From the NCBI GenBank assembly GCA_951406725.2, contig OX597831.1, positions 13,578,001 to 13,642,000 of the forward strand: DNA of 64,000 bases, written 5' to 3'. Below are positions 22,634-58,600 of the stretch, piece after piece. The stretch comes from Octopus vulgaris. Its lineage: Eukaryota. Both the position numbers and the translations under genes were made by a program. The notes beneath the pieces were generated by a model that searched no databases, was not told the DNA's origin, and was given only the letters and a program-made list of their open reading frames with translations. Within the stretch, counting starts at the first letter, position 1. The number at the start of each line of letters is the position of its first letter.

Positions 22634-22681
<48 letters not shown>

Positions 22682-22694
22682 TTGTGTGTGTGCA

Positions 22695-22737
<43 letters not shown>

Positions 22738-22743
<6 letters not shown>

Positions 22744-23483
22744 GATAAAACCACTATTAGGCAAATCAAACAGTGAAAAACATAAACCAAAACATAGAAA
22801 TAAAATTAATTAATATAATATACAAAATATATAAAATATGAAATCCAAAATTTAAATTGTTTAAATTTAAAGTTGAAATTTTTAAAAATGTTTAATTTAT
22901 TAATTTATACTTATATATATATATATATATAAAATATTATTAGAGACAAAACCACTATTTTGCAAAACAAACAAGGAAAGACTTAATCAATACATAAAAT
23001 TTTAATAAATAGTCATATATATATATTATTGTTTTTATTTTTATTTTTATTGTTATTTTTTATCTTTTCATTTTTTAATTATATATTCATTCAACTAATT
23101 AATTTTTTAAAAATATGCATAGCTATCAAAAAGTATGAAAAAGTGTAATATAGGATGAAAAGTAAAACCACTACAATCGTTTCATGCCCAAAACCTAATT
23201 CGAATAATTTAAATTCAATTAATAATTCGAATTATGGTTATAGTCAAGCTTCAGGTTAATGATAATATTTAAATAAATAATCAAATATATTTTAACAATA
23301 TTTATTTTTTATAAGAAATAAATAAAATAATAATTTTTCTTATAAAGAACTGTATTATCAAACTAGAAACTTTAACGAATATGATTATGTCATACAATCG
23401 ATTTTAATGTTAAATATTAATTTTTAAGTATGAAGATTTAAGGTAAGAAATCCACAATAATCTAATCTCAGTTACTGTCAATA
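22738..23483 (-). mobile_element. Left (inverted, tail-less) arm of a Penelope-pLTR-like foldback
   Basis: Reverse complement of 33629-34295 apart from an extra subrepeat at about 22936-23014. Hammerhead-like motif on the minus strand at about 23166-23258 (CTGAAGc..long stem..GAAACgattgTA). Starts at a (TA)n tract. Confidence 0.8.
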
Positions 23484-26400
23484 AGTGGAGGAAAGATTGC
23501 TAAACATTCCAGAGAGGGGGATTTGAGAGTTGAAGGGGAGGAAAGAATGCTAAACATTCCAGGGAGGGGGATTTGATAGTTGAAGGGGAGGAAGGGGAGG
23601 ATAGAATGCTAAACATTCCAGGGAGGGAGATTTGAGAGTTGAAGGGGAGGAAAGGGAGGAAAGAATGCTAAACATTCCAGAGAGGGGGATTTGCGAGTTG
23701 AAGGGGAGGAAGGGGAGGAGAGAATGCTTAACATTCCAGAGAGGGGGATTTGAGAGTTGAAGGGAAGGAACGGGAGGAAAGAATGCTAAACATTCCAGAG
23801 AGGGGGATTTGAAAATTGAAGGGGAGAAAGGGGAGGAAAGAATGCTAAACATTCCAGAGAGGCGGATTTGAGAGTTGAATGGGAGGAAGGGGAGGAAAGA
23901 ATGCTGAACATTCCAGAGAGGGGGATTTGAGAGTTGAAGGGGAGGAAGGGGAGGAAAGAATGCTGAACATTCCAGAGAGGGGGATTTGAGAGTTGAAGGG
24001 GAGGAAAGAATGCTAAACATTCCAGAGAGGGGGATTTGAGAGTTGAAGGGGAGGAACGGGAGGAAAGAATGCTCAACATTCCAGAGAGGGGGATTTGAGA
24101 GTTGAAGGGGAGGAAGTGGAGGAAAGATTGCTAAATATTCCAGAGAAGGGGATTTGAGAGTTGAAGGGGAGGAAGGCGAGGAAAGATTGCTAAACATTCC
24201 AGAGAGGGGGACTTGAGAGTTGAAGGGGAGGAAGGGGAGGAAAGATTCCTAAACATTCCAGAGATGGGGATTTGAGAGTTGAAGGGGAGGGAGGGGAGGA
24301 AAGATTACTAAACATTCCAGAGAGGGGGAATTGAGAGTTGAAGGGGAGGAAGGGAAGGAAAAAATGCTAAACATTCCAGAGAGGGGGTTTGAGAGTTGAA
24401 GGGGAGGAAAGGGAGGAAAGAATGTTGAACATTCCAGAGAGGGGGATTTCAGAGTTGAAGGGGAGGAAGTGGAGGAAAGAATGATGAACATTCCACAGAG
24501 GGTGATTTGAGAGATGAAGGGGAGGAAGGGTAGAAAGAATGCTAAACATTCCAGAGAGGGGGATTTGAGAGGTGAAGGGGAGGAAGGGGAGGAAAAATGC
24601 TAAGCATTCCAGAGAGGGGGATTTGAGAGATGAATGGGAGGAGGGTGAGGAAAGAATGCTATACATTCCAGAGAGGGAGATTTGAGAGTTGAAGAGGAGG
24701 AAGGAGAGGAAAGAATGTTGAACATTCCAGAGAGGGGGATTTGAGAGTTGAAGGGGAGGAAAGAATGCTAAACATTCCAGAGAGGGTGATTTGAGAGATG
24801 AAGGGGAGGAAGGGGAGAGAGAATGCTAAACATTCCAGAGAGGGGGATTTGAGAGGTGAAGGGGAGGAAAGGGAGAAAGAATGCTAAACATTCCAGAGAG
24901 GCGGATTTGAGAGGTGAAGGGGAGGAAGGGGAGGAAAGAATGCTAAACATTCCAGAGAGGGGGATTTGAGAGTTGAAGGGGAGGAAGGGGAGGAAAGATT
25001 TATAAACATTCCAGAGAGGGGCAATTGAGAGTTGAAGGGGAGGAAGGAGAGGAATGATTGCTAAACATTCCAGAGAGGGGTATTTGAGGGATGAAGGGGA
25101 GGAAGGAGAGAAAGAATGCTAAACATTCCAGAGAGGGGGATTTGAAAGTTGAAGTTGAGGATGGGGAGGAAAAAATGCTAAACATTCCAGAGAGGGGGTT
25201 TGAGAGTTGAAGGGGAGGAAGGGGACAAAGAATGTTAAACATTCCAGGGAGGGGGAATTGAGAGTTGAAGGGAAGGAAGGGGAGGAAAAATGTTGAACAT
25301 TCCACATAGGGTGATTTGAGAGATGAAGTGGAGGAAGGGCAGAATGAATGCTAAACATTCCAGAGAGAGGTATTTGAGAGGTGAAGGGGAGGAAGGGGAG
25401 GAAAGAATGCTAAGCATTTCAGATAGGGGTATTTGAGAGATGAAGGGGAGGAGGGGGAGGAAAGAATGCTAAACATTCCAGAGAGGGGGATTTGAGAGTT
25501 GAAGGGGAGGAAAGAATGCTAAACATTCCAGAGAGGGGGATTTGAGAGTTGAAGGGGAGGAAGGGGAGGAAAGAATGCTAAACATTCCAGAGAGGGGGAT
25601 TTGAGAGTTGAAGGGAGGAAGGGGAGGAAAGAATGCTAAACATTCCAGAGAGGGGGATTTGAGAGTTGAAGGGGAGGAAGGGGAGGTAAGAATGCTGAAC
25701 ATTCCAGAGAGGGTGTATTTGAGAGTTGAAGGGGAGGAAGGTGAGGAAAGAAGGCTAAACATTCCAGAGAAGGGGATTTGCGGGAGGAAGGGGAGGAAGG
25801 AGAGAATGAATGCTAAATATTCCAGAGAGGGGGATTTGACAGTTGAAGGGGAGGAAGGGGAGGAAAGAATGTTGAACATTCCAGAGAGGGGGAATTGAGA
25901 GTTGAAGGGAAGGAAGGGGAGGAAAAATGTTGAACATTCCAGAGAGGGGGATTTGAGAGTTGAACGGGAGGAAGGCGAAAAAATGTTGAACATTCCAGAG
26001 AGGGGCATTTGAGAGTTGAAAGGGAGGAAGGGGAGGAAAGAATGCTAAACATTACAGAGAGGGGGATTCGAGAGATGAAGGGGAGGAGGGGAGGAAAGAA
26101 TGCTAAACATTCCAGAGAGTGGAATTTGACAGTTGAAGGGGAGGAAGGGGAGGAAAGATTGCTAAACATTCCAGAGAGGGGGATTCGAGAGTTGAAGGGG
26201 AGGAAGGGGCGGAAAGAATGCTAAACCTTTCAGAGAGGGGGATTTTGGAGTTGAAGGGGAGGAAGGTGAGGAAAAAATGCGAAACATTCCAGAGAGGTGC
26301 ATTTGACAGTTGAAGGGGAGGAAGGGGAGAAAAGAATGCTAAACATTCCAGAGAGAGGGATTTGAGAGTTGAAGGGGAGGAAAGAATGCTAAACATTCCA

Positions 26401-29400
26401 GAGAGGGGGATTTAAGAGGTGACCGGTGGAAGGAGAGGAAAGAATGCTAAACATTCCAGAGAGGGGGATTTGATAGTTGAAGGAGGGGAAGGGGAGGAAA
26501 GAATGCTGAACATTCCAGAGAGGGGATTTGAGAGGTGAAGATGAGGAAGCGGAGGAAACAATGCTAAACATTCCAGAGAGGGGGATTTGAGAGTTGAAGG
26601 GGAGGAAGGGGAGGAAAGAATGATGAAAATTCCAGAGAGGGGATTTGATGAAGGGAATTGAAGGGGAGGAAGGGGAGGAAAGAATGCTAAACATTCCAGA
26701 GAGGGGGATTTGAGAGTTGAAGGGGAGGAAGGGGGGGGGAAAGAATGCTGAACATTCCAGAGAGGGGGATTTGAGAGTTGAAGGGGAGGAAGGGGAGGAA
26801 AGAATGCTAAACATTCCAGGAGGGGGATTTGAGAGTTGAAGGGGAGGAAGGGGAGGAAAGAATGCTAAACATTCCAGAGAGGGGGATTTGAGAGTTGAAG
26901 GGGAGGAAAGAATGCTAAACATTCCAGAGAGGGGGATTTGAGAGTTGAAGGGGAGGAAAGAATGCTAAACATTCCAGAGAGGGGGATTTGATAGATGAAG
27001 GAGGAAGAAGGAAAGAATGCTGAACATTGCAGAGAGGGGATTTGAGAGTTGAAGGGGAGGAAGGGGAGGAAAAATGCTAAACATTCCAGAGAGGGGGATT
27101 TGAGTGTTGAAGGGGAGGAAGGAGGGGAAAGAATGCTGAACATTCCAGAGAGGGGGATTTGAGAGTTGAAGGGAAGGGGAGGAAAGAATGCTAAACTTTC
27201 CTGAGAGGGGGATTTGAGAGTTGAAGGGGAGGAAGGGGAGGAAAGAATGCTAAACATTCCAGAGAGGGGGATTTGAGAGTTGAAGGGAGGAAGGGGAGGA
27301 AAGAATGCTAAACATTCCAGAGAGGGGGATTTGAGAGTTGAAGGGGAGGAAGGGGAGGAAAGAATGCTGAACATTCCAGAGAGGGGGATTTGAGAGTTGA
27401 AGGGGAAGAAGGGGATGAAAGAATGCTAAACATTCCAGAGAGGGGGATTTGAGAGTTGAAGGGGAGGAAGGGGAGGAAAGAATGCTAAACATTCCAGAGA
27501 GGGGGATTTGAGAGTTGAAGGGAGGAAGGGGAGGAAAGAATGCTAAACATTCCAGAGAGGGGGATATGAGAGTTGAAGGGGAGGAAGGGGAGGAAAGAAT
27601 GCTGAACATTCCAGAGAGGGGATTTGAGAGTTGAAGGGGAAGAAGGGGATGAAAGATTGCTAAACATTGCAGAGAGGGAGATTTGAGAGTTGAAGGGCAG
27701 GAAGGGGAGGAAAGAATGCTAAACATTCCAGAGAGGGGGATTTGAGAGTTGAAGGGGAGGAAGGGGAGGAAAGAATGCTAAACTTTCCTGAGAGGGGGAT
27801 TTGAGAGTTGAAGGGGAGGAAGGGGAGGAAAGAATGCTAAACATTCCAGAGAGGGGGATTTGAGAGTTGAAGGGGAGGAAAGAATGCTAAACATTCCAGA
27901 GAGGGGGATTTGATAGATGAAGGAGGGGAATTGGAGGAAAGAATGCTGAACATTCCAGAGAGGGGGATTTGAGAGTTGAAGGGGAGGAAGGGGAGGAAAA
28001 ATGCTAAACATTCCAGAGAGGGGGATTTGAGAGTTGAAGGGGAGGAAGGGGAAACAATGCTGAACATTCCAGAGAGGGGGATTTGAGAGTTGAAGGGGGG
28101 AAGGGGAGGAAAGAATGCTAAACATTCCAGAGAGGGGGATTTGAGAGTTGAAGGGGAGGAAGGAGGGAGGAAAGAATGCTAAACATTCCAGAGAGGGGGA
28201 TTTGAGAGTTGAAGGGGAGGAAGGGGAGGAAAGAATGCTAAACATTCCAGAGAGGGGGATTTGAGAGTTGAAGGGGAGGAAGGGGAGGAAAGAATGCTGA
28301 ACATTCCAGAGAGGGGGATTTGAGAGTTGAAGGGGAGGAAGGGGAGGAAAAATGCTAAACATTCAGGAGAGGGGGATTTGAGAGTTGAAGGGGAGGAAGG
28401 AGAGGAAAGAATGCTGAACATTCCAGAGAGGGGGATTTGAGAGTTGAAGGGGGGAAGGGGAGGAAAGAATGCTAAACATTCCAGAGAGGGGGATTTGAGA
28501 GTTGAAGGGGAGGAAGGGGAGGAAAGAATGCTAAACATTCCAGAGAGGGGGATTTGATAGATGAAGGAGGGGAATTGGAGGAAAGAATGCTAAACATTCC
28601 AGAGAGGGGGATTTGATAGATGAAGGAGGGGAAGGGGAGGAAAGAATGCTGAACATTCCAGAGAGGGGGATTTCAGAGTTGAAGGGGGGAAGGGGGAGAA
28701 AGAATGCTAAACTTTCCTGAGAGGGGGATTTGAGAGTTGAAGGGGAGGAAGGGGAGGAAAGAATGCTAAACATTCCAGAGAGGGGGATTTGAGAGTTGAA
28801 GGGGAGGAAAGAATGCTAAACATTCCAGAGAGGGGGATTTGATAGATGAAGGAGGGGAATTGGAGGAAAGAATGCTGAACATTGCAGGGAGGGGGATTTG
28901 AGAGTTGAAGGGGAGGAAAGAATGCTAAACATTCCAGAGAGGGGGATTTGATAGATGAAGGAGGGGAATTGGAGGAAAGAATGCTGAACATTGCAGAGAG
29001 GGGGATTTGAGAGTTGAAGGGGAGGAAGGGGAGGAAAAATGCTAAACATTCCAGAGAGGGGGATTTGAGTGTTGAAGGGGAGGAAGGAGGGGAAAGAATG
29101 CAGAACATTCCAGAGAGGGGGATTTGAGAGTTAAAGGGGGAAGGGGAGGAAAGAATGCTAAACATTCCAGAGAGGGGGATTTGAGAGGGAGGAAGGGGAG
29201 GAAAGAATGCTAAACATTCCAGAGAGGGGGATTTGAGAGTTGAAGGGGAGGAAGGGGAGGAAAGAATGCTAAACATTCCAGAGAGGGGGATTTGAGAGTT
29301 GAAGGGGAGGAAGGGGAGGAAAGAATGCTGAACATTCCAGAGAGGGGGATTTGAGAGTTGAAGGGGAAGAAGGGGATGAAAGATTGCTAAACATTGCAGA

Positions 29401-32400
29401 GAGGGGGATTTGAGAGTTGAAGGGCAGGAAGGGGAGGAAAGAATGCTAAACATTCCAGAGAGGGGGATTTGAGAGTTGAAAGGGAGGAAGGGGAGGAAAG
29501 AATGCTAAACATTACAGAGAGGGGGATTCGAGAGTTGAAGGGGAGGAGGGGAGGAAAGAATGCTAAACATTCCAGAGAGTGGAATTTGACAGTTGAAGGG
29601 GAGGAAGGGGAGGAAATATTGCTAAACATTCCAGAGAGGGGGATTCGAGAGTTGAAGGGGAGGAAGGGGCGGAAAGAATGCTAAACCTTTCAGAGAGGGG
29701 GATTTTGGAGTTGAAGGGGAGGAAGGTGAGGAAAAAATGCTAAACATTCCAGAGAGGGGAATTTGACAGTTGAAGGGGAGGAAGGGGAGGAAAGAATGCT
29801 AAACATTCCAGAGAGAGGGATTTGAGAGTTGAAGGGGAGGAAAGAATGCTAAACATTCCAGAGAGGGGGATTTAAGAGGTGACCGGTGGAAGGAGAGGAA
29901 AGAATGCTAAACATTCCAGAGAGGGGGATTTGATAGTTGAAGGAGGGGAAGGGGAGGAAAGAATGCTGAACATTCCAGAGAGGGGGATTTGAGAGGTGAA
30001 GATGAGGAAGCGGAGGAAACAATGCTAAACATTCCAGAGAGGGGGATTTGAGAGTTGAAGGGGAGGAAGGGGAGGAAAGAATGATGAAAATTCCAGAGAG
30101 GGGGATTTGAGAATTGAAGGGGAGGAAGGGGAGGAAAGAATGCTAAACATTCCAGAGAGGGGATTTGAGAGTTGAAGGGGAGGAAGGGGGGGGAAAGAAT
30201 GCTGAACATTCCAGAGAGGGGGATTTGAGAGTTGAATGGGAGGAAGGGGAGGAAAGAATGCTAAACATTCCAGGAGGGGGATTTGAGAGTTGAAGGGGAG
30301 GAAGTGGAGGAAAGAATGCTGAACATTCCAGAGAGGGGGATTTCAGAGTTGAAGGGGAGGAAGGGGAGGAAAGGATGCTAAACATTACAGAGAGGGGGAT
30401 TTGAGAGTTGAAGGGGAGGAAAGAATGCTAAACATTCCAGAGAGGAGGATTTGAGAGTTGAAGGGGAGGAAGGGGGGAAAGAATGCTCAACATTCCAGAG
30501 ATGGGGATTTGATAGTTGAAGGGAAGGAAGGGGCGGAAAAAATGATGAACATTCCAGAGAGGGGGATTTGAGAGTTGAAGGGGAGGAAGGGGAGGAAAGA
30601 TTGCTAAACATTCCAGAGAGGGGGATTTGAGAGTTGAAGGGGAGGAAAGAATACTAAACATTCCAGAGAGGGGGATTTGATAGTTGAAGGAGGGGAAGGG
30701 GAGGAAAGAATGCTGAACATTCCAGAGAGGGGGATTTGAGAGGTGAAGGGGAGGAAGGGGAGGAAACCATGCTAAACATTCCAGAGAGGTGGATTTTAGA
30801 GTTGAAGGGGAGGAAGGGGAGGAAAGAATGCTGAACATTCCAGGGAGGGGGATTTGAGAGTTGAAGGGGAGGAAGGGGAGGAAAGAATGCTAAACATTCC
30901 AGAGAGGGGGATTTGAGAGTTGAAGGGGAGGAAAGAATGCTAAACATTCCAGAGAGGGGGATTTGATAGTTGAAGGAGGGGAAGGGGAGGAAAGAATGCT
31001 GAACATTCCAGAGAGGGGGATTTGAGAGTTGAAGGGGAGGAAGGGGAGGAAAGAATGCTAAACATTCCAGAGAGGGGGATTTGAGAGTTGAAGGGGAGGA
31101 AGGGGAGGAAAGAATGCTGAACATTCCAGAGAGGGGGATTTGAGAGTTGAAGGGGGGAAGGGGAGGAAAGAATGCTAAACATTCCAGAGAGGGAGATTTG
31201 AGAGTTGAAGGGGAGGAAAGAATGCTAAACATTCCAGAGAGGGGGATTTGATAGATGAAGGAGGAGAAGGGGCGGAAAGAATGCTGAACATTCCAGAGAG
31301 GGGGATTTGAGAGTTGAAGGGGAGGAAGGGGAGGAAAAAATGCTAAACATTCCAGGGAGGGGGATTTGAGAGTTGAAGGGGAGGAAGGGGAGGAAAAATG
31401 CTAAACATTCCAGAGAGGGGGATTTGAGAGTTGAAGGGGAGGAAGGAGAGGAAAGAATGCTGAACATTCCAGAGAGGGGGATTTGAGAGTTGAAGGGGGG
31501 AAGGCGAGGAAAGAATGCTAAACATTCCAGAGAGGGGGATTTGAGAGTTGAAGGGGAGGAAGGGGAGGAAAGAATGCTAAACATTCCAGAGAGGGGATTT
31601 GAGAGTTGAAGGGGAGGAAAGAATGCTAAACATTCCAGAGAGGGGGATTTGATTGATGAAGGAGGGGAAGGGGAGGAAAGAATGCTGAACATTCCAGAGA
31701 GGGGGATTTGAGAGTTGAAGGGGGGAAGGGGAGGAAAGAATGCTAAACATTCCTGAGAGGGGGATTTGAGAGTTGAAGGGGAGGAAGGGGAGGAAAGAAT
31801 GCTAAACATTCCAGAGAGGGGGATTTGAGAGTTGAAGGGGAGGAAAGAATGCTAAACATTCCAGAGATGGGGATTTGATAGATGAAGGAGGGGAATTGGA
31901 GGAAAGAATGCTGAACATTCCAGAGAGGGGGATTTGAGAGTTGAAGGGGAGGAAGGGGAGGAAAAATGCTAAACATTCCAGAGAGGGGGATTTGAGAGTT
32001 GAAGGGGAGGAAGGAGGGGAAAGAATGCTGAACATTCCAGAGAGGGGGATTTGAGAGTTGAAGGGGGGAAGGGGAGGAAAGAATGCTAAACATTCCAGAG
32101 AGGGGGATTTGAGAGTTGAAGGGGAGGAAGGGGAGGAAAGAATGCTAAACATTCCAGAGAGGGGGATTTGAGAGTTGAAGGGAGGAAGGGGAGGAAAGAA
32201 TGCTAAACATTCCAGAGAGGGGGATTTGAGAGTTGAAGGGGAGGAAGGGGAGGAAAGAATGCTGAACATTCCAGAGAGGGGTATTTGAGAGTTGAAGGGG
32301 AAGAAGGGGATGAAAGATTGCTAAACATTGCAGAGAGGGGGATTTGAGAGTTGAAGGGCAGGAAGGGGAGGAAAGAATGCTAAACATTCCAGAGAGGGGG

Positions 32401-33570
32401 ATTTGAGAGTTGAAGGGGAGGAAGGGGAGGAAAGAAGGCTAAACATTCCAGAGAGGGGGATTTGACAGGTGAAGTTATGAAAGGGTCCGAAAGAATGCTG
32501 CACATTCCAGAGAAGGGGATTTTAGAGTTGAAGGGTAGTAAGGGGTGGAAAAATTTTGAACATTCCAGAGAGGGGGATTTCAGAGTTGAAGGGGAGGAAG
32601 TGGAATAAAGAATGATGAACATTCCAGAGTGGGGGATTTGAGAGTTGAAGGGGAGGAAGGGAAGCAACGAATGCTTAACATTCCAGAGAGGAGGATTTGA
32701 GAGTTGATGGGGAAGAAGGGGGAAGGAATACTGAACTTTCCAGAGGCGGATTTGAGAGGTGAAGTGGAGGTAGTGTAGGATTGTTAAACATTCCAGAGAG
32801 GAAGTTTTGAGGAGGGAAGGGGTGGTAGTGTTGGAAGGAATGTTGAACATTCCAGAGAAGGGGATTTCTGATGTGACGGGGTGGAAAGGGAGGAAGGAAT
32901 GTTGAACATCCCAGAGCGGTAGATTTGAGATGGGAAGAGGAAGGAGGAATGCTGAACACTCCAAAGACGGTGATTAGGGCTCTTAAGGGAGGAATGGTAG
33001 GAAGGATTTTTGAACATTCCTGAGATAGGGATTTGAGCAGGGAAGGGGAGGAACGTGATTAATGAATGCTGAATATTCCAGAGAGGAATATTTGCGAGGG
33101 GAATGGGAGGAAGCGGAGGAATGAATGTTGAACATTCTAGAGAGGGGGATTTTAGAAGTGATGGGGAGGAAGGGGATGAAGGAATGTTGAACATTCCAGA
33201 GAGGGGAATTTCCGAGGGGAATGGGAGGAATGGGAGGAACAATGTTGAACATTCTAGAGAGGGGGATTTGAAAAGTGAAGGGGAGGAAGGAATGTTTAAT
33301 ATTCCAGAGAAGGGTATTTGAGAGGGGATGTGTAGGAAGAGGAGGAAGGAATGTTGAACATTCCAGAGAAGGTGATTTGAGGAGTGAAGGGGTGGAAGGG
33401 GAGGAAGGAATGTCGGTCATTCCAGAGAGGAGAATTTGAGCAGTGAAGGTGAGGAAGGGGCGGAAGGAATGTTGAACTTTCCCGAGAGGGGGATATGAGA
33501 GGGGGAAGTGGACGATGGGGAGGGAGGAAGGAATGTTCAACTTTCCAGAGAGGGGGATATGAGAGGTGAA
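23484..33570. repeat. Purine-rich tandem satellite of about 10.1 kb with a 59-bp monomer (50-bp variant)
   Basis: Consensus gctaaacattccagagagggggatttgagagttgaaggggaggaaggggaggaaagaat. The short variant lacks one 9-bp ggggaggaa. About 170-180 units, estimated from length rather than counted. Confidence 0.98.
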
Positions 33571-34075
33571 TTTTTCATATGAAAAATTATTTATTATTTA
33601 TTTTTTGTTAAATATTTAGGTAATTAGATATTGACAATAACTGAGATTAGATTATTGTGGTTTTCTTACCTTAAAAATTAATACTTAAAAATTAATATTT
33701 AACATTATAATCGATTGTATGACATAATAATAATCGTTAAAGTTTCTAGTTTGATAATACAGTTCTTTATAAGAAAAATTATTATTTTATTTATTTCTTG
33801 AAAAAAATAAATATTGTTTAAATATATATGATTATTTATTTAAATATTATCATTAACCTTGAAGATTGACTATAACCATAATTCGAATTATTGATTAAAA
33901 TTAAATTATTGTTATTCGAATTAGGTTATGGGCATGAAGCGATCGTAGTGGTTTACTTTTTATCTTATATAACACTTTTTAATCCTTTTTGATAGTTATA
34001 TATTTTTTTAATGAATTAATTAAATATATAATTGAAAAAAAATTTTTTTTAATAATAATAAAAATTTAAAATATA

Positions 34076-34118
<43 letters not shown>

Positions 34119-34387
34119 TTATAAGAATAAATTAATAGTTTAAAATTTTTTTAAAATTTTAACTTTAAATTTAAATAATTTAAATTTTGAATTTTATATT
34201 TTATATGTTTTTTATATTATATTAATTAATTTTATTTCTATGTTTTGGTTTGTTTTTCACTGTTTGATTTGCCTAATAGTGGTTTTATCTCTAATTTAAT
34301 ATATATATTTATACTGTAAAATTAGATTTAATCCTAAATCTAACATTTCCCTGTAAGTTTGGATTTACTCCCTAATATTGTTATTAT
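33571..34387 (+). mobile_element. Right arm plus 92-bp tail of the same Penelope-pLTR-like foldback
   Basis: 33629-34295 is inverted relative to the left arm. Hammerhead-like motif at 33855-33954 (ccTTGAAGA..stem..GAAGCgatcgTA). Tail 34296-34387 is shared with the independent copy at 55860-56166. Confidence 0.8.
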
Positions 34388-35545
34388 ATACATACACACC
34401 CACCCAGATATATATATGTATATATATATACTTCTGGAAAGAATATTCTTAAAATGAAAGTATTCACTCTGTTGCTGTTGGCGACCAAGCAGCGCTGTAT
34501 TCAGTAGAACTACTTAATTCTTTGAACATCAGTCACATGTCAGTTCACATTACCAATACGGACGCTAGTAAATCTTGACCACAGAAACCAGCCATTTCAA
34601 CAATATATGCTATAGACATTTATCTGCAAATGACACTGACAAATGCAAGTAAAATAACTGGTTTTGACGTAGGACGTGTTTTTCTAATTCTCTAATTCTC
34701 CGTATCAACCTGAAGTTATCAGATATAGATTTCTCATTTAATTTAAAACATCCTTTTTCTGTCAAACCCGCATTTGCCGCGGAATGCTATTAACCGAAAG
34801 CTCTGAGCAAATCTCATTAAAATCTGACATTAACCTCCTTACAACATTGCTCACAAATAATCATACACGTTGCTCTCTGTAGACTTTGGAGGTGATTTTC
34901 GCCTGTGTAATTAGGCTTAATTACAAGACGTTAGGAATCTTCCTATGTAGGAAATGGAGAATGTACAAAAAATGTCGCGTATTCAAAAGATGGTTTGAAT
35001 TTGCAAATTTTGCGTTAGTAGAACAGTGTGTTGTCTGGAGAAATATAATACGGTAAAATATAATTCGTTTTATTAATATTTGTTAAACGACTATTACATT
35101 TTCAGTCTGCGTTAATTTTCTTCTTTTGTTCTATCTTTAAAGTTTTCCTCTATTTCGATGAACATATTTTTTTACTGTTTTAATTAAAACAGCAATGTGT
35201 ACATGTATATAAATGCATACATACTCATAGCAGACATATGCGTGTATGTGTATAAAACAGATATATGTTATATAATATGAAAATGCAATATTTATAATTA
35301 TATATTAAAGCGTTAAGCTTGTATCGTATTTATCAAACCCTGTTGGTCTTGAAATTTTATTCTGTTTCCTTTCTCTATATATGTTTCTATGTGAGTTAGA
35401 GGAATAGAAACCGACTAAGGGATAGTAACTATCCAATATAATGCTGGTAGTGTATCCAGTTATTCATAACCAAGTGCTAGTTATTGCATGGCAATCTCGC
35501 AATTGAGTATTATATATTGGAGGGGGTAAAATTCGTTTACCCTTG

Positions 35546-35676: not shown

Positions 35677-35745
<69 letters not shown>

Positions 35746-35751
<6 letters not shown>

Positions 35752-36068
35752 GAATGGAGTCGAACGAAGATGTTAACAAAATTCCTTTACTCTCGACATA
35801 TGTTTCGAAGACAACATGGTTTCATGGAATGAAACCATGTTGTCTTCGAAACATATGTCGAGAGTAAAGGAATTTTGTTATCATCTTCGTTTGACTCCAG
35901 TCTTTCATTTATTGATATATAACACACACATTTCTGCACATGAACCCGGAGTTTCTACCCTTGGACAGTTCGCTTCAATCGTGTTTCTGATGTGAATTTG
36001 CTACCCTGGTATCGGTTCAACGAATTTTCCATGCTGACGATAAACATAGCATAATTCATTCACCTATT
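35746..36068 (+). mobile_element. Small asymmetric foldback (Penelope-pLTR-like) holding the 3' half of a hammerhead
   Basis: 80-bp arms 35746-35825 and 35829-35908 (3 mismatches), plus a one-sided tail. GAAA-catatg-TC at 35848-35859. Related to the 53642 element. Confidence 0.75.
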
Positions 36069-36456: not shown

Positions 36457-37524
36457 TATATATATATATATACATACATACGTATGGATGCACAGAAAAA
36501 AACACAGATTGTAATGATCTTTTGCTTGATAACTGACGAGGAAAGAGCTTGTGTGTATTGTGTGTGAATTTTCTTTTCGTTCATTGTTCTGCTTTTGTTT
36601 GAAGTTTGAAAACTACACACACACACACACATACACATAGACACACACACACATACACATACGCGCAAACCATCTTTTCTGGTTTTATAGAAACCAAAGT
36701 TATTTCATTATTAGAGAGAAGCATCTAGCATGCATCGTCATTTTACTTAGGTTGCTCATAATATTACATAATATTTAATTGTACGCTTCACTGATTTTTA
36801 TGTATATATTTGTGTGTTGTGTATTTTGTGTTTTGTACAGTCTCTGAAAGATATCAAGAAACTAAAATTATATGTTAGAGCATCGTTTAGAGCATGTAGT
36901 TATTTCTTAAATAATTCCTCTATCGTTTTAGAAACAGCCGTTTTAATAATGGTTTGTTTTTTCCCACAACAATTTTAACTGTATCATTTCATGTAGATTT
37001 TCTTTTACATAGGATCTATTAAATGTATTTTAATAATCATCATTAAATAGGCAACTTTTTTTTCACATATTTTTAACGTCATCGGCATCAAATATACTAG
37101 CGAATTAGTGAAGATGTGTACAACGCTGTGTGGTGTGTGTGTGTGTATGTGTGTCTTCGCAATGTGTTTGCATGCAGCTTTCTATGTTAGTAACATGAGG
37201 CTGAACTCCGTATTTACATTTCATCATGTGCGTGTCTTTCTAAATCAAGGAACTCAATCTCAGAAATAGAACAGAAACACGCAGCAAGGTTAATCTGACG
37301 TAATATCTTAATATGTTAGCATGTAATTCTAGTCACTGAGCAATGCTTACGTTCTATCGCTCAGCGTAATTAAAAAGCAAAGCACACACACACACATACA
37401 CACGTATGTGTGCAAATGTATAAATATCTATGTATGCATATATCTAAATATGTATATGTATATTTGTATGTATATATGTATGTTTATGTATATTTATATA
37501 TATATATATAGTATATATATATAA

Positions 37525-37568
<44 letters not shown>

Positions 37569-37569
37569 G

Positions 37570-37631
<62 letters not shown>

Positions 37632-37798
37632 GTATATATATATACATATATAATTCATAAATGAGGGCAAAGGAAAAATATTCTAATGCCAAATATGCCG
37701 AAAAATTGGACATATTGTCCATTAACCATATAATTTTTTCACAATACGCACGCTACTCGAAAAAAGGTCGACAGAAATTTCTAAAAAATTCCATTATT

Positions 37799-37854
37799 AC
37801 CATATCGGACCGATTTCAGAGTTAGCTACTAAGAGCCCTCTCTTCGTCAGTGAT
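37799..37854 (-). ncRNA. Minimal type I hammerhead ribozyme
   Basis: Minus strand: auca-CUGACGA-agagagggcu-cuuagu-agcuaacucu-GAAA-ucg-guc-cga-UA^uggu. All core nucleotides present and stems I-III pair. Confidence 0.8.
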
Positions 37855-37930
37855 ACATGTGGCAAAAGAAATAAATGAGATACTTCCATGGGTATGAGTA
37901 AGTATCTCATTTATTTCTTCTGCCACATAT

Positions 37931-37984
37931 ATCACTGACGAAGAGGGGCTCTTAGTAGCTAACCTGAAATCGGTCCGATATGGT
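37931..37984 (+). ncRNA. Minimal type I hammerhead ribozyme (stem II carries two 1-nt deletions relative to the sister arm)
   Basis: atca-CTGACGA(37935)-agaggggctcttagtagctaacct-GAAA(37966)-tcggtccga-TA^tggt. Confidence 0.7.
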
Positions 37985-38200
37985 AATAATGGAATTTTTA
38001 GAAATTTCTGTCGACCTTTTTTCGAGTAGCGTGCGTATTGTGAAAAAATTATATGGTTAATGGAAAATATGTCAATTTTTCGGCATTTATGAATTGTTTA
38101 TAAATTTAACCGTTAAAGGTATTTTTTTTATATGCTGGCCATTAATAAAATTTTTTTCGAGAAAATATTTTTTTTCGAAAAGAATTTTATCCTCACATTT

Positions 38201-38275
<75 letters not shown>

Positions 38276-45505: not shown

Positions 45506-46128
<623 letters not shown>

Positions 46129-46959
46129 ATATATATATATATATATATATAATCCGTTTATCTGTCCTTGTTTGTCCTCTCTGTGTTTAGCCTCTTGTGG
46201 TAGTAATAATATATATATATATTAGATTAGTTAATTTAAGGTCTCGATTTACGTTGTGCTGAAGTGTTCGGAAAGAGAGCGAAATATTGTTCTCCATAGA
46301 CACCAGATACTTTAAAGATTTTTATCTCATAAAAAAAAACAAAGAATTATATGGACATATATGTATGGTCTTTTCACTCTTCGATAATGGCTCCTCGACA
46401 TAAGAATAAACTTAGACGCGCTTCCCTCCTCTTACGTAGCAATTCCTAATAATTCCACGTCGTATATCAGAACAGACTGACATGAAATATAAACGGGACT
46501 ACTAAAATGAAAGTAATTGCTATTTTTTCAAATCCCTTCATCAGATAAATGAAACAAACGACAGTAGTTTTAATTACAATAGTGACTTCTTATGACTATT
46601 TTCCGGAGTGTGGCTTACAATATAGGAATTCAATGATTGTGCTCTGATGACATACTGATCGAACATAAAGAGGCAGCGTCACTCAGAGGGGCTTCTTCAC
46701 CATTTCCTTTTTCCAAACTGCACACAATCACTGCTGCTCCCACATTTTAACAGTGTAATTATTTCCATGAGACAAAGCAATCAATGGATACGAAGAGCAA
46801 TTACAAATTACTATATTACAGAAGCATCGAGCTGGCAGAATCTTTAGCTAATCGAACCATACACTTTGCAGAATTTCTTGCGGCTCTTTATGATTCTACG
46901 TTCAATACCCGATGTAAGCGACTTTGCTAGTTATCTTTTATAGGTTGATAAAATAAATA

Positions 46960-47346
46960 CTCTGTTGTGTCTGGGGAGAGTCATTCTCTTTTGGTGCCTT
47001 ATTATTTAACACACTCACCGGTAAAATTTCCACTTATTTCTTATTTTTATTTTCTAAAATTTTCGTTGCGTCTTGCAACCTTTTCAATAGTCTTGACTCT
47101 GTCCATTGACCCGCACACATGTGCACAAACAAACAAAGTGTAAATAACGGACAGAGTCAAGACTATTGAAAATGTTGCAAGACGCAACGAAAATTTTAGA
47201 AAATAAAAATAATAAGTGGAAATTTTACCTGTGAGTGTGTTAAATAATAAGGTACTAAAAGAGAGTGATTCTCCCCAGACACAACAGAATATACTTCAAC
47301 ACACGAACTCATATAAAGAATCTTGCAAACCAAATCCAAGAACGAA
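46960..47346 (+). mobile_element. Asymmetric foldback inserted into an old family-A SINE, with a 12-bp target duplication
   Basis: Arms 46961-47104 and 47149-47288, tail to 47346. ataaaataaata occurs at 46948-46959 and 47347-47358. SINE-like sequence continues on both sides. Confidence 0.8.
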
Positions 47347-53641: not shown

Positions 53642-53649
<8 letters not shown>

Positions 53650-54096
53650 TTAGTGAATTGAAGAAATGGAGTTGAACGAAGATTGAACAGAAATCGTTTT
53701 ATTGCATTCTACACGTGTTTCGAAAGGCACGATTTACCAAATTCCGATTGAATAAGGAGACCATATTGTGTGTTTCTCTTTTTGTTTTTTCCAACGGATT
53801 TCCTATTTCTTCCTGAAGAGAAACACACAATATGGTCTCCTTATTCAATCGGAATTTGGTAAATTGTGCCTTTCGAAACACGTGTAGAATGCAATAAAAC
53901 GATTTCTGTTCAATCTTCGTTCAACTCCATTTTTTCAATTCACTAATAATATTAAAATTCAATTATCCGCACCAACGCACGGTTGCAACACCATATGGTT
54001 GTACCTCCAACCGTGCTGTCTTCTGCTGTGATTTTTGCTACCAAGGTATCGGTTAAACTTTGATTAATCTGCAACAAGATTATTCATCTTTCTATT

Positions 54097-55035: not shown

Positions 55036-55236
55036 AATATTTGCTGAAGTTCAAGCATCCTAACAAATTCACTTGAATAATTACTTATCTTATATCTTCA
55101 TTAGCTCTTAATTATCTTTAACCGAGTAAAAAGCAATTTTAAGTTCGTATATATTTAATTATTAACAATATATATATTTTTAGCTTGGTATAGCCTCGAC
55201 AAATCTTTGGTCGAAACATATCTACGTTGTCTAATA

Positions 55237-55782
55237 TACGAGGGTGAGTCAAAAAGTAATGCCATTTTGTTTAGGACAAGTAAAGCAACCAACACAGGAA
55301 CATGTATCATACATCAAAATGAAGCTGGTCCTCTGTGGATCGCCTCCCTACTCCTCAACATAGTCACCGTTTCTCTCAATAGCAATGTTCCACCTTCGAA
55401 TAAGCGCATGTATCCCTGCCCTGTAAAGTTCTTCACTGCAGTTTTCACTTCCTCGTTACTGGGCTATCATCGCCACTGGACAATCATCTCTTCGGCCCCA
55501 TGAAAGAGGGTTTGAGAGGCAAACATTATTCTAGTGACGAGGAAGTAAAGAGCTGTAGTGAAAAAGTGGCTCAAAGAACAGTCAACAGAATTTAACGTGG
55601 CAGGGATACACGTTCTCATTTGAAGGTGGAGCATTGCTATTGAGAGAAACGGTAATTATGCTGAGAAGTAAGGATGTGTTTCACAGCGGACCAGCTTCAT
55701 TTTGATGTATGATACATGATCCTGTGTTGGTAATTATACCTGTCCTAAACAAAGTGGCATTACTTTTTGACTCACCCTCGTA
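55237..55782. mobile_element. Mariner-derived foldback MITE made of two inverted 3' ends
   Basis: Termini TACGAGGGTGAGTCAAAAAGTAATGCCA and its exact reverse complement. The + strand encodes HLFGPMKEGLRGKHYSSDEEVK..WLKEQ..GIH..RW..IERNGNY.EK*; the same segment is inverted at the left. Confidence 0.92.
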
Positions 55783-55793
55783 AATATAAATAA

Positions 55794-55859: not shown

Positions 55860-56166
55860 AGATAAATATTTCAATTAACCTGAAGATTGACTCGAATTAT
55901 TACGAATTGTACAGCCATGAAACGATCGTAGTGTTTTACTCTTTATCTTTTATTAAACTTTTAATACTTTTGATATATATTTAAAATAATATAAATTAAT
56001 TAATTTTATGTATTGGCTTATATTTTTCATTGTTTGATTTGCCTAAGAGTGGTTTTATCTCTAATTTAATATAATATAATATAATATATTTTACTATAAA
56101 ATTGGATTTAATCCTAAATCTGATTTTTCCCTCTAAGTTTGGATTTATTCCCTAATATTTTATTAT
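55860..56166 (+). mobile_element. Shorter relative of the satellite-flanking pLTR-like element, with an intact hammerhead core
   Basis: aacCTGAAGA(55880)ttgact..agccatGAAA(55919)cgatcgTA^gtg. Shares tgtttgatttgcctaa..ggttttatctctaat and the tail with 34250-34387. Confidence 0.75.
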
Positions 56167-56760
56167 ATATATATATACATACAAATATATACATGTATGT
56201 ATGTGTGTATGTTTGTACGCATGCATGTGTGAATACAAACACGTATCTTTTCTATGTGGCTTTGCGCATTAATGTAGTATATCTGCCGAAATATTCATAC
56301 GGGGCGACAAATTGTTAGTATAGTATGTATGTGTATATGTAGACACATACATAGAATATATAAATATATATGTGTGTATTTATACCTATATACATACACA
56401 CACACACATGTAAGTAGATGTGCGTGTGTGCGTGTGTGTGCGAGTGTGTATGCGTGTGAGTGTGTAAACACTAGAAATTAAATAGTTTTGCTAGTGTAAC
56501 TTTATATATAATGGAGATGTTGTAGGAAGCAGTGCAATGTTTTTAAATATTAAAACAAGAAATAGTATTCCCACTTGATTTCAAAAACCATGTGATTTAA
56601 ATGTGTGATGTTTATATATTTATATAACAGCGTGTTCGTTCTAAGTATATATATGTGTGTGTGTGCATTCATATATACATATATTTATATATTCATATAT
56701 ACATATATATTTATATATATATATATATATGAATATATATGTATATATGTACATATATAC

Positions 56761-57375: not shown

Positions 57376-58238
57376 TAGGAGATCTGATCAATAAGTATCC
57401 GTACTGTTGTCATGGTAACGACGCCAAAGTATGGAGATTGAAGCTGTTTGGCACAGATTGACCTTGAACTCTGCTGTGCATGCGCATTAAGTTTTAACGT
57501 TCTAGCTCACTTCCGCTGTTTACAGCAGTGCTTGGAAGGAAGGTGTGTATCGTGTGACCGAAGCATTGACCATGATACAGAAAATTGATTAGAAGATATG
57601 CATCAAATTTTGTGAAAAACATAGCGATACTTGCACAGAGGCCTACGCAAAGTTTTCAAAAGGTTTTCACGGTTCTCGTCACAACCAAGGAATTTTGTGC
57701 AACTGAATCTTTTTGGTCAGCTGAAAGTAGTTTTGGCAAAATATTGGCGTCTCATGCTCAACTTTTCAGTGTTAATGGGCTGAACTGAACTGCAACGAAT
57801 CTGCACACACTCGCGGATGGTAATTCAACGATTTCCCCTCAGATCTGGGTTGTTTTTCTCAGTCATGATGATTGAGGCTCTTCCAGAACATTCGTCAATA
57901 TCGACACTTTTTTCAGCCATCTTGGAAACATCAGAACCACTCGTACACTTGTGTGCGGCTCATACATTCCTCTCCATACATCTTCTGCAACTTTGCGTAG
58001 GCCTCTGAGCAGGTGTCATTATGACAACTTTCTCTGTCATGGTCAATGCGACGATCACACGCTACACACTCTCCTTCCAAGCATTGCTGTAAATAGCAGA
58101 AGGGAGCTAGGGCGTTAAAATTTGGTGCTCATGCACAAAAGAGTCTACGGTCAATCTTTGCCATGGCGACTTCACCCTGCGTGCCTTAGCTTCGTTAGTA
58201 TGGACAAAAGTCCAGATACTTACTGATTAGATTTCGTA
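57376..58238. mobile_element. Mariner-derived foldback made of two inverted 5' ends
   Basis: Degenerate TIRs taggagatctgatcaataagtatcc vs revcomp tacgaaatctaatcagtaagtatct. The + strand reads ICIKFCEKHSDTCTEAYAK; the - strand reads DTCSEAYAKLQKMYGEECMSRTQVYEWF..FQDG..SGR..R*ITIRE (mariner HTH region). Confidence 0.85.
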
Positions 58239-58349: not shown

Positions 58350-58600
58350 TTACGGGGATGTACTTGCATAGCGAGTGCCTTGATCTGAGATCGTGTGCTG
58401 GAACGAAAACAATTGCAGCGTGGAAGGTCTTTATAAGCCATTTGTTTTCGTTCCAGCACACTATCTCAGATCAAGTCACTCGCAATGCAAGTACATCTCC
58501 GTAAATCCAAAAGCTTGAGCCAGGCTACCAAAACTTTGAGGAAAGCCGTTACTCGTTGCTTGAGAAAAGTAACAGCTAAGCAACAGCTTCATTTCATTAT
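58350..58600 (+). mobile_element. Small asymmetric foldback between microsatellites
   Basis: 63-bp arms 58350-58412 and 58442-58504 (about 4 mismatches), plus a tail of about 95 bp; no hammerhead core seen. Confidence 0.7.

Follow-up and report, generated by a model that had tools for sequence, protein, structure and literature searches.

The window analysed here is a stretch of 64,000 nucleotides of the Octopus vulgaris genome (C18:13578001-13642000 of the 2.8-Gb assembly GCA_951406725.2; C18 is contig OX597831.1), which is AT-rich and dense in microsatellites. It contains a satellite array at positions 23484-33570, composed of 174 monomers that are mostly 59 bp long (102 of 174 have exactly this length), and two inverted arms of a Penelope-like element (PLE) that enclose this array (Table 1). 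The satellite is placed exactly at the inversion seam of the foldback: no remnant of the TA target was found between either arm and the satellite, and the side of the short arm does not carry any part of the long arm. An earlier note on this DNA, made from the sequence alone, had likewise placed the satellite at the inversion point. The left arm aligns with the reverse complement of positions 33629-34295, and complementarity amounts to 95% over the inner 231 nt and to 90% over an outer stretch of 154 nt. Alignment and sequence also confirmed the inverted orientation of the arms, the 92-bp tail on the right side only and the TA-rich bounds. Of the 58-bp spacer that the note had seen between satellite and right arm, most is right arm, with clear family homology starting at about 33601, and a palindrome occupies the seam.

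The right seam was checked in contigs from 4 of 24 listed sequencing runs. A contig of one run, which possibly derives from the assembly's own sample, covers positions 33440-33618 with zero differences and at single-copy depth, and over 33529-33630 a single difference separates the assembly from a contig of a second run, which is labelled as another organism. Given bridging contigs of two runs, a misassembly of the right seam is not supported. None of the pieces listed covers the complete unit. No RNA run is among those listed for this sequence, which speaks neither for nor against a read-through hairpin RNA.

Table 1. Features of the satellite-bearing foldback and its target flanks (positions within the window).
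Feature	Position	Strand
TA/GT microsatellite, left target flank	22636..22739	
Left arm, assigned as 5′-truncated 3′ end of a Hydra-clade Penelope-like element; no tail; inner end adjoins satellite	22738..23483	-
Second head copy, 77% identical, nested in the internal TA tract of the left arm; absent from the right arm	22939..23025	-
Left hammerhead remnant	23165..23262	-
About 155 satellite monomers of a derived, locally homogenised variant; + strand rich in G	23484..32442	+
Transition zone and old end of the satellite, with diverged monomers; roughly the final twelve are of family-wide ancestral type	32443..33570	+
Seam between satellite and right arm: perfect 10+10 palindrome, a filler of snap-back type	33569..33588	
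Right arm, assigned as 5′-truncated 3′ end of the same element; sister of left arm	33579..34295	+
Right hammerhead remnant	33850..33955	+
92-bp one-sided tail	34296..34387	+
TA/CA microsatellite, right target flank	34388..34431	

To which element do the arms belong? A genome-wide search with the core of the left arm gave 1669 first-look candidates, 40 of which were scored, and stepping inward via longer copies leads to a broken reading frame. One copy (L174) combines in a single piece the arm core (87% identity), a long AT-rich 3′ region, a broken frame for reverse transcriptase (RT) and GIY-YIG endonuclease, and an upstream partial repeat with tail. In this near full-length copy the 92-bp tail belongs to the upstream partial repeat, just ahead of the open reading frame (ORF), and the ORF with RT and C-terminal GIY-YIG lies upstream of the repeat on the hammerhead strand. 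When P0001 was compared to the L174 frame by tblastn, E values of 4e-28 and 3e-10 were obtained. The translated fragments of L156-L162 and L174, in which motifs were read by eye, contain the RT motifs, DKT in place of DKG, a CxCX5C linker, a C-terminal GIY-YIG without CCHH, and CxxC and CxH around a conserved E and N; the target is (TA)n. The RWK motif was seen only as R-x-K-W-K in the fragments of this family. Neither the RT nor the GIY-YIG family of Pfam matched in the two fragments submitted, and a search with the endonuclease part among longer proteins revealed one relative (35%), which aligns back to L174. All reading frames of the arm family that we have seen are broken, and its inverted 5′-truncated copies form 33 inverted junctions across 81 loci, with the tail on one side.

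Craig et al. 2021 (PMC8557442, section 11) list DKT, the CxCX5C linker, the C-terminal GIY-YIG without CCHH, CxxC and CxH, a hammerhead and (TA)n targets as marks of the Hydra clade of PLEs. Since the motifs of the fragments match these marks, the arms are, as judged from sequence, the 3′ ends of a Hydra-clade element of the EN+ (endonuclease-bearing) type, and the Penelope-type identity that had been proposed earlier now extends to an RT/GIY-YIG frame through L174. The window family resembles the described Hydra-clade elements in its motif set, the hammerhead, the inverted 5′-truncated copy and the one-sided tail. It differs from this description by a tail of 92 bp instead of 30-40, an AT-rich 3′ region of more than 2.5 kb, and a hammerhead in which stem II measures about 20 bp and stem I is weak.

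Of 59 aligned copies of the arm family, 37 have both hammerhead cores intact. Stem II of this hammerhead spans about 20 bp, the loop of stem III is palindromic and stem I is weak. In its long stem II and palindromic loop it resembles the minimal type I hammerheads of PLEs (PMC4209133). The decayed hammerhead-like motif that had been noticed in both arms is thus present, but it is a full hammerhead in the family and is differently broken in each arm. In the left arm the last base of the CUGANGA box is changed and the stem III palindrome is altered, with the long stem II retained; on the right, the CUGANGA box is one base too long and the GAAA box carries a single change, while stem II measures about 20 bp. 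Because of these different defects neither arm should self-cleave, and the ribozyme is predicted to have no part at this locus. No hammerhead family is found among the 150 of 170 Rfam matches listed, which are microRNA-like and snoRNA-like, lie in repeats and all remain under the curated scores.

Several findings connect the two arms to each other. They share private substitutions and two indels against 28 other copies, and in an alignment of 62 arm pieces they have four substitutions in common that are present in at most one other copy. Four or more such shared substitutions occurred in only 3 of 1514 non-sister pairs, all of them among three neighbouring copies on contig C27. A diagnostic 30-mer with two private variants has two matches in 2.8 Gb, one per arm, while the common form has 94. 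Since this 30-mer is confined to the arms genome-wide, they can be regarded as sisters, and the comparison identifies a single insertion, not two independent ones. The arms differ at 27 of 362 sites (7.5%), and the median for unrelated pairs is 6.8%. This divergence despite the shared variants implies that the source copy had its own mutations or that the arms converted each other. Six other sister pairs share zero or one private variant each.

How does the satellite behave elsewhere in the genome? For comparison we used 26 other arrays, 19 by flank fetching and BLAST and 7 by eye and motif scan (four large ones among these seven were additionally compared by their flanks); they represent a sample, not a census. 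For the 19 arrays, 37 of 38 ends were fetched, the remaining one being located at an assembly gap, and arms were searched for within 2 kb. The arm family was not detected by BLAST next to any of the 19 arrays. Conversely, the satellite was absent from 55 other loci of the arm family, from 32 further loci (some overlapping the 55), and from all 33 inverted junctions at the 81 loci. Many arrays lie within mosaics of short tandem repeats and others in unique DNA. The same termini at many arrays, which would indicate a satellite-carrying non-autonomous transposon, were not observed, as none of the 19 arrays has these arms, and only 1 of the 26 arrays is surrounded by foldback arms, which belong to another family. 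The satellite is an independent dispersed family, and most of its arrays have spread without these arms. Target-site duplications longer than 5 nt were not found at the ends of 18 of the 19 arrays; one array shows a 13-nt match, which lies inside a tandem neighbour. Inverted matches on both sides of L169, at a distance of 400-700 bp, are repeats of short-interspersed type (class assigned by eye) and not a foldback, and in several compound blocks inverted matches come from the arrays' own tandem neighbours.

These data have consequences for two ideas of the earlier note. That the satellite was born inside the element is ruled out by the 26 other arrays on many contigs and by the ancestral-type monomers at the right-hand end of the window array. 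The expectation that other arrays of the 59-mer would be flanked by the same pLTR (pseudo long terminal repeat) family failed at all 19 arrays, and this speaks against this family as a regular companion of the satellite.

Most monomers of the window array carry four derived changes, and roughly the final twelve are diverged monomers that belong to the family-wide type. A derived 45-mer is present in 30 copies in the window and in 3 copies in one array at C18:6.400-6.412 Mb, and nowhere else. This sister array (L163, L164, L175) lies 7.2 Mb away on the opposite strand, consists of about 200 monomers without arms, and its majority form is confined to it. The distribution of the 45-mer implies that the greater part of the 10 kb was amplified only once the variant existed. 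As most of the array is a locally homogenised variant, a cargo of 10 kb is not supported. The variant common to both arrays further implies that satellite sequence passed between the two loci without the element. Transfer of the 3′ half of the sister array into the window by a cut-and-move event was considered and rejected: its 3′ monomers are not continuous with the 5′ monomers of the window. Within the window the old end passes gradually, in place, into the derived variant. The first eight monomers, at the left edge, show a pairwise divergence of 7.6%, which is like that of the arms (7.5%), and the left seam should therefore be about as old as the insertion.

The seams of the arm family are usually tight. 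Spacing at the 33 inverted junctions is at most 5 nt in 24 cases, 14-61 nt in 4 cases and more than 150 nt in 5 cases. One seam (L099:1774-1836) has a filler of 61 nt that is copied from another part of the element and ends in a 10+10 snap-back like that of the window. The arms of the window palindrome (10+10) compare to a best arm length of 9 in 50 background windows. A palindrome without any spacer, built from two 1.55-kb arms of the window's arm family, was found at L173:819-4043 (C27:22118318-22121542). Compared to seven other copies, its left arm shows 169 A-to-G versus 10 T-to-C changes and its right arm, read reversed, 79 T-to-C versus 4 A-to-G changes; these are limited to the inner 800-900 nt of each arm, and controls have at most 13. 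This pattern represents A-to-G changes on one genomic strand over both arms, as expected if an ADAR-hyperedited hairpin RNA had been reverse-transcribed whole. No parent of this palindrome was found, its centre being single-copy in the genome.

In order to detect further contacts between the satellite and PLE-type repeats, array flanks were scanned for hammerhead cores, a scan that detects intact cores within 1-1.5 kb only and may miss other contacts. A gap-free, continuous 35-kb array of the same satellite at C11:8.4986-8.5342 Mb has a hammerhead core 117 nt from its right end. This array is enclosed as well (pieces L070:4525-4591 and L171:7253-7580, C11:8.4985-8.5346 Mb): a 66-nt untailed arm beside a TA tract bounds it on the left, a longer tailed arm with intact hammerhead cores bounds it on the right, and beside the long arm the last 204 bp of the satellite are inverted. 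The arms belong to another family (family B; 2582 first-look candidates) without DNA similarity to the window's arm family. Hammerhead cores are intact in 10 of 24 copies of family B, which occurs with inverted partners at several loci, has ends with and without a tail and targets TA; none of the 24 loci compared contains the satellite. Matches to an RT/GIY-YIG ORF in 3 of 32 loci of family B offer at most a candidate link between this repeat and an ORF. Over 66 nt the two C11 arms have two rare variants in common. The best relatives of the right arm differ from it by about 19%, and the edges of the array are old too (14.5%). Since the C11 arms are very unequal, capture at the seam fits this locus better than the breakage of a perfect hairpin.

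A further array, at C7:8.049-8.174 Mb (125 kb), is separated at its left end by about 11 nt from a tailed 1.1-kb arm of family B, whose truncated end faces it (L212:8150-9293, C7:8.048 Mb). A full enclosure was rejected here, since the only untailed inverted candidate lies 8 kb past the right end, is 74% alike and does not make a convincing partner; the contact is counted as one-sided and may be due to chance. Among the 26 other arrays there are thus one enclosure and one one-sided contact. The second enclosure, by an unrelated family, keeps alive the idea of the earlier note that a retroelement may seed satellite arrays, while regular co-movement with the pLTR family of the window is contradicted by 0 of 19 arrays and 0 of 33 junctions.

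Taking all observations together, we see about an even chance that the satellite was captured at the arm-to-arm junction during integration and then expanded in place. In this scenario a Hydra-clade PLE inserted once, with two arms, into a TA microsatellite. Two truncated cDNA ends would meet centrally and be joined by error-prone repair or by a template jump. Such joining would usually add nothing or a short filler and only rarely satellite DNA or RNA. The captured piece would be a fragment of an older satellite array, from which unequal exchange could then have amplified the derived monomer to 10 kb in place. The element would accordingly act as an occasional trap and founder, being neither the source of the satellite nor its regular vehicle. 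Rare uptake during joining would account for the seam-exact placement at two loci that involve different families and a very different symmetry of arms.

A number of observations weigh against capture at integration. The arms of the window end within about 50 bp of each other, as few family foldbacks do, and this would fit a later break of a nearly symmetric hairpin. By raw distance they are not mutually nearest copies. An empty orthologous site of the locus was not seen. The last eight monomers are 14% away from the family majority (11% at A/T sites alone), and the arms are about 5% away from theirs (5% at A/T sites), so that the captured piece must already have been old; a donor for it with more than 82% identity was not found in the 17 scored of 90 candidates. 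The left seam abuts monomers of the derived type and may thus have been reworked. Finally, a rough estimate, made by hand from the density of foldbacks in the window (about 6-8 per 64 kb), gives a chance of roughly 1 in 10 for one seam-exact case in 26 arrays. Of these points the old right end is the main difficulty for capture at integration.

The order of events may have been different. The foldback could have existed first, as a near-symmetric palindrome, and a later break in its centre could have been repaired with satellite, with loss of about 50 bp of the left arm, 8-10 bases of which would remain by the centre. The nearly equal lengths of the arms and the perfect 10+10 palindrome exactly at the inner end of the right arm would be explained in this way, a zero-spacer palindrome is known in the family (L173), and the satellite has entered many ordinary sites without arms. 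However, snap-back palindromes also occur in ordinary seam filler (L099), placement is equally exact between the very unequal arms at C11, and in apparent age the left-edge monomers match the arms. We regard a later break as unlikely, though as an account that has to be taken seriously.

The old right end, which looks two to three times older than the arms, is at the same time the main support for a resident array, around which a single integration complex would have nicked the TA tracts on either side and added one arm per side, with trimming of the old left end. Consistent with this, no donor was found for the old end, the derived variant grades out of it in place, and the PLE enzyme described in PMC11167929 cuts both strands and is predicted to be a dimer. 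On the other hand, no TA remnant is left between arms and satellite, few arrays have TA tracts near both ends, and nicks kilobases apart together with exact trimming would be required twice, at two loci. This makes a resident array improbable. Whether capture, a later break or a resident array applies, the event was a one-off for this element family.

Satellite that travelled inside the element RNA from a parent unit, with arm-satellite-arm units as mobile cargo, we consider quite improbable. PLEs can move host sequence framed by pLTRs (PMC3846280), and the A-to-G signature of L173 looks as if the RNA of a whole hairpin had been copied. But the unit has no second copy, the diagnostic 30-mer is confined to the two arms, the 55 and 32 (partly overlapping) other family loci are free of satellite, the sister array on the same contig is armless, and the C11 case involves another family. 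Two independent insertions that flank the array by chance, an alternative to which the earlier note had rightly preferred a common origin, are very improbable: the family is abundant, with its 1669 first-look candidates, and the arms differ by nearly as much as unrelated pairs, but the private shared variants, the complementary tail status, the facing truncated ends, the lack of target remnants inside and, above all, the 30-mer found in both arms only contradict them, so that only arm-arm conversion after insertion could rescue this explanation.

Returning to capture at integration, the C11 and C7 arrays allow a more general proposal, which we make tentatively and do not rate as probable. The arm-to-arm seam of a two-ended Penelope-type integration may be a recurrent satellite trap, which would have founded, via two unrelated families, at least two of the largest arrays of this satellite, those of the window and C11, and perhaps a third, that of C7 (125 kb). 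Because whole hairpins of the family were apparently copied through RNA, such seams could also move satellite seeds onward.

Parts of this scheme have precedents. For Poseidon of Anolis (PAc), Frangieh et al. 2024 (PMC11167929) report that both strands of AT-rich DNA are nicked in vitro, that reverse transcription starts at two sites, so that one end receives a tail and the other does not, and that insertion in vitro can do without hammerhead cutting. PAc belongs to another clade than the window arms, and the available text does not address arm joining or filler capture. In Adineta vaga, Penelope elements frame host DNA between pLTRs, palindromes occur at the inverted junction and the tail is optional (Arkhipova et al. 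2013; PMC3846280). The mobilised gene lies there between two direct pLTRs with a target-site duplication, whereas in the window the satellite lies at an inversion seam and was expanded later, and a duplication would be unreadable in the microsatellite. Satellites are reported to disperse as arrays in non-autonomous transposons, by reinsertion of circular DNA and by inter-locus conversion (PMC11610590), and a mobile satellite, MSAT-11, is described for Chlamydomonas (PMC9977147). The octopus satellite resembles these cases in being scattered as separate arrays with varied flanks and diverged edges. It differs from them since no single transposon frames its arrays, two of which lie in the seams of two unrelated PLE-type foldbacks. 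As in animal non-LTR (long terminal repeat) retrozymes and hammerhead satellites (10.64898/2026.07.22.740005; PMC4209133), PLE-linked hammerheads and tandem DNA meet at one locus; in contrast to the one hammerhead per monomer of such satellites, hammerhead cores are missing from the 59-bp monomer, which bears no relation to the pLTR, and only the arms contain the ribozyme motif.

The arm family is new, and its clade and insertion pattern are already known, as are the capture of host DNA by PLEs and the dispersal of satellites by several routes. A satellite array at the inversion point is not described for the Hydra clade in the part of PMC8557442 available, and no description of an array at a PLE inversion junction was found in the literature searched, which did not cover subscription journals and supplements. 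How satellite arrays arrive at new sites is considered an open question, with three proposed routes (PMC11610590). A retroelement seam gives the founding event a datable frame, since arms that start identical date the arrival of the array by their divergence. Limits could thereby be set on how fast a short seed expands to 10-35 kb and is homogenised. The locus also bears on the last step of Penelope integration, the joining of the two arms. If an enrichment of satellite at seams fails to appear, the locus is an ordinary nested repeat.

Some further features of the satellite were observed. The 5′ starts of arrays (n = 24) cluster in a purine run before the internal palindrome of the monomer (R 0.42, about 0.016 versus a simulated control), and the 3′ ends (n = 23) show no clustering (R 0.18). 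The clustered starts, some of which are paralogous, are a weak hint of directional synthesis. Several arrays contain internal strand flips (L069:4959-6558, L073:3930-6679, L203:8679-8791); in L069 the flip occurs at the monomer's own 8+8 palindrome, which is broken in the derived variant of the window. The same few short tandem repeats are joined to many arrays on different contigs, and one array (L062:1649-1665) ends in two telomere-like GGGTTA units followed by an AT-rich tandem repeat. At L205:5200-6200 and L206:4300-5300, close to one end of contig C2, two short stretches of satellite share their flanks but in reverse orientation to each other, which looks like an inverted segmental duplication.

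The window contains other inverted structures as well. Six smaller foldbacks, to which the earlier note had attributed the architecture of the satellite-bearing one, are indeed present (35733-35921, 37509-38275, 45560-45824, 46957-47292, 53642-53954 and 58350-58504), parts of four of them having been read, but they fall outside the arm family. In a solo tailed 3′ end of a related subfamily at 55916-56169 the hammerhead cores are intact and stem II is far shorter. The elements at 55234-55785 and 57376-58238, both with long terminal inverted repeats, are not PLE foldbacks, and the ends of the former look mariner-like.

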